From the NCBI RefSeq assembly GCF_030013595.1, contig NZ_CP122768.1: a stretch of DNA of 64,000 nucleotides; one strand, written 5' to 3'. The notes under the pieces were generated by a model, which saw only the letters and a list, made by a program, of their open reading frames with translations, made no database searches and was not told where the DNA came from. Shown here in pieces: positions 59,292-59,952 of the stretch (its first letter is position 1; every line of letters begins with the position of its first letter). This DNA is from Escherichia coli (GTDB lineage Bacteria > Pseudomonadota > Gammaproteobacteria > Enterobacterales > Enterobacteriaceae). Made by a program: the position numbers and the translations under genes.

Positions 59292-59428
59292 AGGTGAGCC
59301 GTGTAGTTGAAGGTTTTTACGTCAGATTCTTTTGGGATTGGCTTGCGTTTATTTCTGGAGCGTTTCGTTGGAAGGTATTTGCAGTTTTCGCAGATGATGT
59401 CGGTGAAACTTCGTCGCTGTCGCCTCAT
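59252..59428 (-). CDS. ninE: NinE
   Basis: from [20 protein letters not shown] inside ORF 59252-59518; matches lambda NinE. Confidence 0.75.
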
Positions 59429-59952
59429 GCCGCCCTCCTGACGCCCTGCCCGATCGCTATCAATGCCGCTTTGGATACGGTAGTAAACATCCGTCGAGGA
59501 CTGATGAACGGTCGCCAAATCAGCAGCATGGAGCCTTTGCTGTTTCCCTTCTTCTCCAGCCCCGTCGATGGTTCGATAAAATTAATCCGTCCATCAGTGA
59601 TAATGCGAACTTCGTCGACACTCTCCAGAGCCTTGCTGAACCATCCGACTGACATATCCTCTGGCACAAGCATCACTACCGTCTGTCGCTGTTGTATGCA
59701 CTGCTCAGCGGCTTTTTCCACCCACGGCCTGATATTGCTGTACGGTGGGTTATTCCAGATTGCACCGTGGCTTACCCACTCAGAATTGAGCGCGTCGTCG
59801 GCCTCAGTTAGCCAGTGAGCACACAGAGCATTTTTGTCGCTCGCTGCCGAATCCAGCCAGAATCCAAACTCAATATCCAGTGCATCAAAAAGCCAAAGCG
59901 GCGTTTGCCAGCAGTCCTTGTCGTGTGCTGGCGTATTTGATTTGATAGTCAT
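59425..59952 (-). CDS. phage DNA N6-adenine methyltransferase
   Basis: NPPY catalytic motif (IWNNPPYS) seen; start taken at MTIKSNT overlapping the ninB stop; occupies the lambda ninC position. Confidence 0.8.

Follow-up and report, generated by a model that had tools for sequence, protein, structure and literature searches.

A small adenine methyltransferase of the phage Dam family in the nin region of a lambda-like Escherichia coli prophage

Introduction

Why would a lambda-like prophage carry an adenine methyltransferase gene of its own, at which site would the product act, and when would it be made? These questions are raised by a gene in the nin region of a prophage in Escherichia coli (NCBI RefSeq assembly GCF_030013595.1, contig NZ_CP122768.1), which we analyzed within a stretch of 64,000 nt, here called the window. 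The gene had been picked out earlier from the sequence alone (the original prediction) as an orphan Dam-type methyltransferase. Our analysis indicates that it very probably encodes the small "phage Dam" of lambdoid phages, an ortholog of the VT2-Sakai enzyme M.EcoVT2Dam, which would methylate the A of GATC and top up methylation during lytic growth. The gene is an ordinary one, already known and routinely annotated, and is not a discovery.

Results

Family assignment and close relatives

The product matched the Pfam family PF05869, "DNA N-6-adenine-methyltransferase (Dam)", at 1.6e-64 (217.1 bits against a cut-off of 28.1; profile positions 1–167 of 169), and the NCBIfam equivalog TIGR01712, "phage N-6-adenine-methyltransferase", at 3.1e-79 (264.3 bits against a cut-off of 97.05; profile positions 1–165 of 165). 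Because both scores greatly exceed their cut-offs, the family match is far above chance. The protein also matched PHROG 111, and its best PADLOC matches were "orphan methyltransferase" models. Together with the open reading frame (ORF) itself and an NPPY motif at residues 68–71, these matches bear out the original prediction of a 175-residue N6-adenine methyltransferase, to which only the strand, minus, has to be added.

When compared with NP_050531 (orf32; M.EcoVT2Dam in REBASE) of phage VT2-Sakai, the protein was identical at 174 of 175 residues (99.4%). The sole difference, I165 here and M in VT2-Sakai, is conservative and lies in a non-conserved C-terminal helix. The two proteins have the same length, and their genes occupy the same place between ninB and ninE, as part of a 705-bp methylase–ninE module that is 98.6% identical between the two phages at the DNA level. 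Identical or near-identical copies of M.EcoVT2Dam are carried by 933W-type Shiga toxin (Stx) phages, Phi24B, HK97 and Sf101, and the annotation of E. coli CP53 includes a gene 100% identical to the one in our window (RefSeq WP_000153277.1, 'phage N-6-adenine-methyltransferase'). The phage as a whole differs from VT2-Sakai: it is lambda-like, with O, P, ren, ninB and Q about 97% identical to those of lambda, it lies beside the bio operon, and no stx gene was found in the window.

The founding, biochemically studied members of the PF05869/TIGR01712 family are the Dam proteins of phages HP1 (M.HinHP1Dam) and T1, which share 35% and 32% identity, respectively, with the methylase described here. 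Both are orphans whose genes belong to early operons, in phages of types unlike the lambdoid one, HP1 being P2-like and T1 virulent. T1 Dam, whose specificity is GATC, also differs from our protein in having an N-terminal extension of about 45 residues and an insertion of about 14 residues ahead of a conserved hairpin described below. HP1 Dam is counted among the Dam-like phage enzymes in PMC7556043, and the purification of the T1 DNA methyltransferase is cited in PMC7139368. A further homolog of the same family, with 36% identity, was found in the lactococcal phage PhiM1127.

GATC specificity

A GATC target for the allele in this prophage is carried over from the 99.4% identical M.EcoVT2Dam. 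This enzyme, a single residue apart from ours, has been cloned, and its specificity is reported to be GATC; three papers that cite Radlinska & Bujnicki (Acta Microbiol Pol 2001; 50:161) attribute to it a Dam-like GATC activity (PMC6602927, PMC7139368, PMC7556043). Going by what these citing papers say of it, the expression of the VT2-Sakai ortholog in a dam-negative host has in effect already been carried out as a test. The statement in the original prediction that the target motif is unknown from sequence is thus outdated.

A more distant enzyme also points to GATC. In lactococcal 936 phages, a small "DAM" methylase that has only the NPPY motif gives G6mATC by single-molecule real-time (SMRT) sequencing and shields phage and plasmid DNA from DpnII (PMC4190342). 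The PhiM1127 homolog lies at the same packaging-module position as this enzyme, which is probably itself a member of the PF05869 family. The report on M.Phi93DAM points to GATC.

Relationship to other adenine methylases

Of the name Dam-type, as used in the original prediction, the part that stands is the specificity; the family is that of the HP1, T1 and VT2 enzymes (PF05869). No match to the Dam family (MethyltransfD12) was found in Pfam at E ≤ 0.01, and searches of the PDB with phmmer and with a 59-sequence profile returned no Dam, T4 Dam or DpnM chain at E ≤ 1. E. coli Dam, T4 Dam and DpnM are alpha-class MethyltransfD12 enzymes with a target-recognition domain (TRD) inserted between motifs I and IV, whereas the methylase described here lacks this insertion and is about 100 residues shorter. 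Judged by its sequence, it is not a relative of these enzymes, and the GATC specificity that it would share with E. coli Dam is best read as convergent. Convergence between the specificities of phage Dam and host-type Dam is also stated by the Radlinska group (PMC7556043, PMC7139368).

Several other methylases were considered as relatives and rejected. The 'DNA adenine methyltransferase' of Stx prophages that is in fact a 16S rRNA methyltransferase (PMC10810198) was ruled out: it belongs to the MT-A70 family, has DPPW as its motif, is encoded close to int and needs PNB-2. For the MT-A70-type phage methylases (M.EcoGV; the rRNA methyltransferase M.EcoPA8orf6770P), a gene close to int in Stx prophages, with the PNB-2 partner gene upstream, is characteristic, whereas the gene in the window encodes NPPY, has no MT-A70 match in Pfam and is located in the nin region. 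M.EcoGIX, a plasmid-borne, single-strand-specific enzyme, was ruled out as well, as were the non-specific methylases Hia5 and M.EcoGII, the former of which is related to Dam/D12.

Motifs and predicted structure

The catalytic motifs follow one another in the order X (D13-x-W15-x-T17-P18), I (L33-D34) and IV (NPPY), with only 33 residues between D34 and N68. In an alignment of 59 diverse homologs, N68 and P70 were invariant, with conservation of 90% or more at P69 and Y71, and DxWxTP and LD did not vary among the 58 homologs aligned with our protein. In a comparison with the HP1, T1 and PhiM1127 proteins, DxWxTP, LD and NPPY were all invariant. The segment comprising residues 120–140 was also strongly conserved among the 59 homologs. 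It contains a conserved hairpin outside the classical motifs, in which R122, F125, N137 and K139 were invariant with respect to the HP1, T1 and lactococcal phage homologs, and it is likely to be the element that reads the DNA.

An AlphaFold2 model of very high confidence, generated from the 59-sequence alignment (pLDDT 95.2, pTM 0.91), showed a single alpha/beta Rossmann-fold domain, in which 146 of the 175 residues align to methyltransferase catalytic cores. As modeled, the protein is a bare methyltransferase core with no separate TRD. PDB searches by sequence and with the 59-sequence profile gave chance matches only and no member of the family among the solved structures; hits to SdiA and Med31 were dismissed as chance, the latter having arisen through a coincidental NPPY. 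The nearest solved fold was that of the cap-specific mRNA m6Am methyltransferase PCIF1/CAPAM, a eukaryotic protein of ~480–700 residues with additional helical and WW domains and ~15% identity. This resemblance is limited to the catalytic core and has no bearing on the substrate.

The gene and its place in the nin region

The ORF runs on the minus strand from an ATG at 59952–59950 to a TGA at 59427–59425 (Table 1). A longer, GTG-started ORF of 195 residues was dropped as the form of the gene, as RefSeq annotates the 528-nt gene with its ATG at 59952. A Shine–Dalgarno sequence, GGGGAG, is located 10 nt 5' of this ATG. At both ends the gene overlaps its neighbor through an ATGA junction, which suggests translational coupling of the methylase with ninB and ninE. 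The overlap at the ninB end had been correctly noted before; it is unremarkable, since junctions of the ATGA type are usual all through the nin regions of lambdoid phages (PMC8022706). A GATC site at 59960–59963 (minus strand GGGGAGATCGGGCTGCATG) falls within the ribosome-binding region of the methylase and is one of only two in or beside the gene; its position is probably coincidental.

Table 1. Position of the methylase gene and of adjoining features in the window
Feature	Position	Strand	Evidence
Phage N6-adenine DNA methyltransferase gene	59425..59952	minus	ORF and translation, 175 aa, 528 nt
Catalytic motif IV codons N68-P69-P70-Y71	59739..59750	minus	translation
ATGA junction, ninB TGA / methylase ATG overlap	59949..59952	minus	read directly from sequence
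ATGA junction, methylase TGA / ninE ATG overlap	59425..59428	minus	read directly from sequence
ninB (orf), recombination mediator gene, immediately upstream	59949..60392	minus	PF05772 1.2e-54; ~97% DNA identity to lambda ninB, block lambda 38592-41084
ninE, immediately downstream	59255..59428	minus	PF05322 4e-43
Intrinsic terminator between ren and ninB	60414..60437	minus	terminator scan: 8-bp stem, 6 GC pairs, T-run

The prophage lies next to uvrB, bioA and ybhB and extends from the tail fibers at ~29.5 kb to cI at 63.1–63.8 kb of the window. Its cII–O–P–ren–ninB segment is 97.5% identical to lambda. The end of this identity coincides exactly with the ninB stop (window 59949, corresponding to lambda 41084), and homology to lambda picks up again at ninE (window 59421, lambda 42097). 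Both ninC and ninD have thus been exchanged for the methylase; the original prediction had named ninC, correctly as far as it went, and ninD has to be added. This arrangement, in which the lambda-like block adjoins a methylase–ninE module close to that of VT2-Sakai, is a typical lambdoid mosaic joint.

Downstream of the methylase are genes for NinE, a 134-residue protein (phrog_1511), NinF, an Ant/KilAC antirepressor, YbcO, RusA, NinH and a lambda-type Q. No restriction endonuclease gene was present among these or NinB, and no PADLOC defence model matched the nin-region neighbors or the other accessory ORFs of the prophage. Since none of the neighbors is a restriction enzyme or matches PADLOC, the methylase is an orphan, in agreement with what had been claimed for it.

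Expression

The terminator between ren and ninB lies within a block that is 97% identical to lambda, and we take it to be lambda tR2. Being downstream of this tR2-like terminator, the methylase is a delayed-early gene of the PR operon that needs N antitermination. From this placement, it would be repressed by CI in the lysogen and made in lytic growth. No promoter-like site was found by a scan of the minus strand within or just upstream of the gene. In Phi24B, whose dam is given as 100% identical to the VT2-Sakai protein, quantitative PCR (qPCR) placed dam expression among genes "linked to the lytic cycle", and the product was detected immunologically in lysogen cultures (PMC3342100).

Distribution

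At a nucleotide identity of at least 95%, the 528-bp gene was found in 244 phage records, including many Stx1- and Stx2-converting phages, HK544, Sf101 and lambda-like isolates. At the same threshold it was present in 1565 of 5426 complete E. coli genomes (~29%), in up to five places per genome. The genomic copies are almost always flanked by ninB and ninE, and nearly all are full-length. The wider family comprised 8792 representative clusters at E ≤ 1e-3, and a tblastn search retrieved 1900 phage records, from Escherichia, Klebsiella, Vibrio, Lactococcus, Gordonia and others.

Other features of the prophage

The 134-residue ORF between ninE and ninF (58851–59252, minus strand) is lacking in lambda. 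It matched phrog_1511, a group of unknown function, over its full length, and had no significant Pfam family and no PADLOC match; its C-terminal half appears coiled-coil-like. Further along, at 57315–58686 (minus strand), the place of lambda ninG and ninI is taken by a gene resembling those of Ant/KilAC-Rha antirepressors, together with ybcO (DUF1364, a putative nuclease) and rusA. The operon has a further mosaic joint here, with 86% identity between the antirepressor segment and the roi region of VT2-Sakai.

At 56080–56235 (minus strand), closely following the lambda-type Q, are two tRNA genes, for Thr(TGT) and Asn(GTT). Lambda homology breaks at window 56238 (lambda 44781) and returns at 56078 (lambda 44945), so that a tRNA cassette of ~160 bp stands in for ~163 bp of lambda sequence at the PR'/tR' end. 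In Stx phages, Ile/Arg tRNAs occupy the same relative position, ahead of stx. Between the lysis cassette (lysozyme, 54541–55074; DUF2514, 54041–54562) and the terminase, an ORF of 230 residues (53253–53945, plus strand) is oriented against the late genes around it. Neither Pfam nor PADLOC gave a match for this ORF, which may represent moron-type cargo. Insertion sequence (IS) fragments were seen at the prophage/host junction beside the bio operon, between host ybhB and the tail-fiber end (26437–27962). They consist of an N-terminal piece of a transposase (26437–26658) and an integrase-core fragment (26803–27168), and an AraC-family regulator (27210–27962, minus strand) lies beside them.

Discussion

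Lambda and P22 virion DNA is undermethylated at Dam sites, as replication outruns the host Dam; the undermethylation is described in PMC8022706, and a value of ~50% is cited for lambda. We propose that transcription from PR past tR2, with N antitermination, would lead to the methylase being made in lytic growth and not in the stable lysogen. The enzyme would then act as an S-adenosylmethionine-dependent N6-adenine methyltransferase on the A of GATC, where host Dam also acts, and would top up GATC methylation on the fast-replicating phage DNA that host Dam leaves undermethylated. By analogy with the lactococcal enzyme, fully methylated progeny genomes would be expected to resist nucleases of the DpnII/MboI type, which cut unmethylated GATC. 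MutH and SeqA act on hemimethylated GATC, and established Dam biology suggests, as a possible side effect, that the progeny DNA would become invisible to both.

Several points weigh against this proposal. The usual hosts, E. coli, Shigella and Salmonella, are all dam+, so that an anti-restriction benefit is not obvious, and we know of no experiment showing a fitness effect of this nin-region gene. There are 2.5 GATC sites per kb in the prophage, compared to 4.6 per kb in the adjoining host sequence, and the count in the prophage (89) is below the Markov expectation of about 136–160. Lambda, without the methylase gene, has a similar GATC density, so the low density says nothing about the methylase and is no compositional signature of its action. 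The GATC specificity of M.EcoVT2Dam comes to us second-hand, through the three citing papers. In addition, the nearest solved fold belongs to an RNA cap methyltransferase, and the MT-A70 'GATC methylase' of Stx phages (phiPA8) prefers rRNA and methylates 16S rRNA together with its PNB-2 partner (PMC10810198); both observations illustrate that substrate assignment from annotation alone can mislead. The function of phage Dam enzymes is described as "still not well understood" by the authors of PMC7556043.

The PCIF1-like fold and the phiPA8 enzyme, along with the non-specific Hia5 and M.EcoGII and the lack of a separate TRD in the model, could be taken to favor a substrate other or broader than duplex GATC, such as relaxed adenine methylation, single-stranded DNA or RNA, perhaps with the help of a partner protein. 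However, these precedents come from different families (MT-A70 with DPPW; Dam-related Hia5), whereas the near-identical M.EcoVT2Dam is reported to be GATC-specific, and the probable lactococcal family member gives clean G6mATC by SMRT (PMC4190342). The conservation of residues 120–140 across the 59 homologs also fits one shared, specific target. We therefore consider a different or broader substrate very improbable. Alternatively, the methylase might be active in the lysogen and regulate host or prophage genes epigenetically, stabilizing lysogeny or altering host gene expression, for instance; epigenetic regulation of the host had been suggested in the original prediction. Such a role would agree with the immunological detection of the Phi24B product in lysogen cultures, which its authors speculate supplements host Dam (PMC3342100), and with the need for host Dam in stable 933W lysogeny (Murphy et al. 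2008, as cited in PMC3342100). On the other hand, the qPCR results tie Phi24B dam to the lytic cycle, that is, to an induced subpopulation, and the gene described here is in the CI-repressed PR operon behind a tR2-like terminator, with no promoter-like site of its own in the scan. Since host Dam already has this target, the enzyme would not add a new mark in a dam+ cell. On balance, regulation of the lysogen appears decidedly unlikely.

A different selective value could lie in the speed with which hemimethylated GATC is converted to the fully methylated form, blinding MutH mismatch repair and SeqA and thus favoring recombination between diverged lambdoid genomes, rather than in protection from restriction. 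Such an effect would fit the location of the methylase directly after ninB/orf and in the same operon as rusA, and we regard it as unlikely; a variant in which the TRD-less methylase also acts on single-stranded DNA or RNA is less likely still. That the gene is a decaying, non-functional passenger could be argued from the dispensability of the nin region in lambda and from the duplication of a host function. Yet the ORF is intact, with all family-invariant residues present and both coupled ATGA junctions preserved, and the copies found at the 95% DNA identity threshold in the 244 phage records and 1565 E. coli genomes are nearly all full-length, and we assign this explanation next to no probability.

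Completing GATC methylation of the phage genome, with an anti-restriction benefit, is thus the most likely role of the enzyme, as we infer it from the reported specificity and lytic-cycle expression of its near-identical relatives and from the DpnII protection given by a related one.
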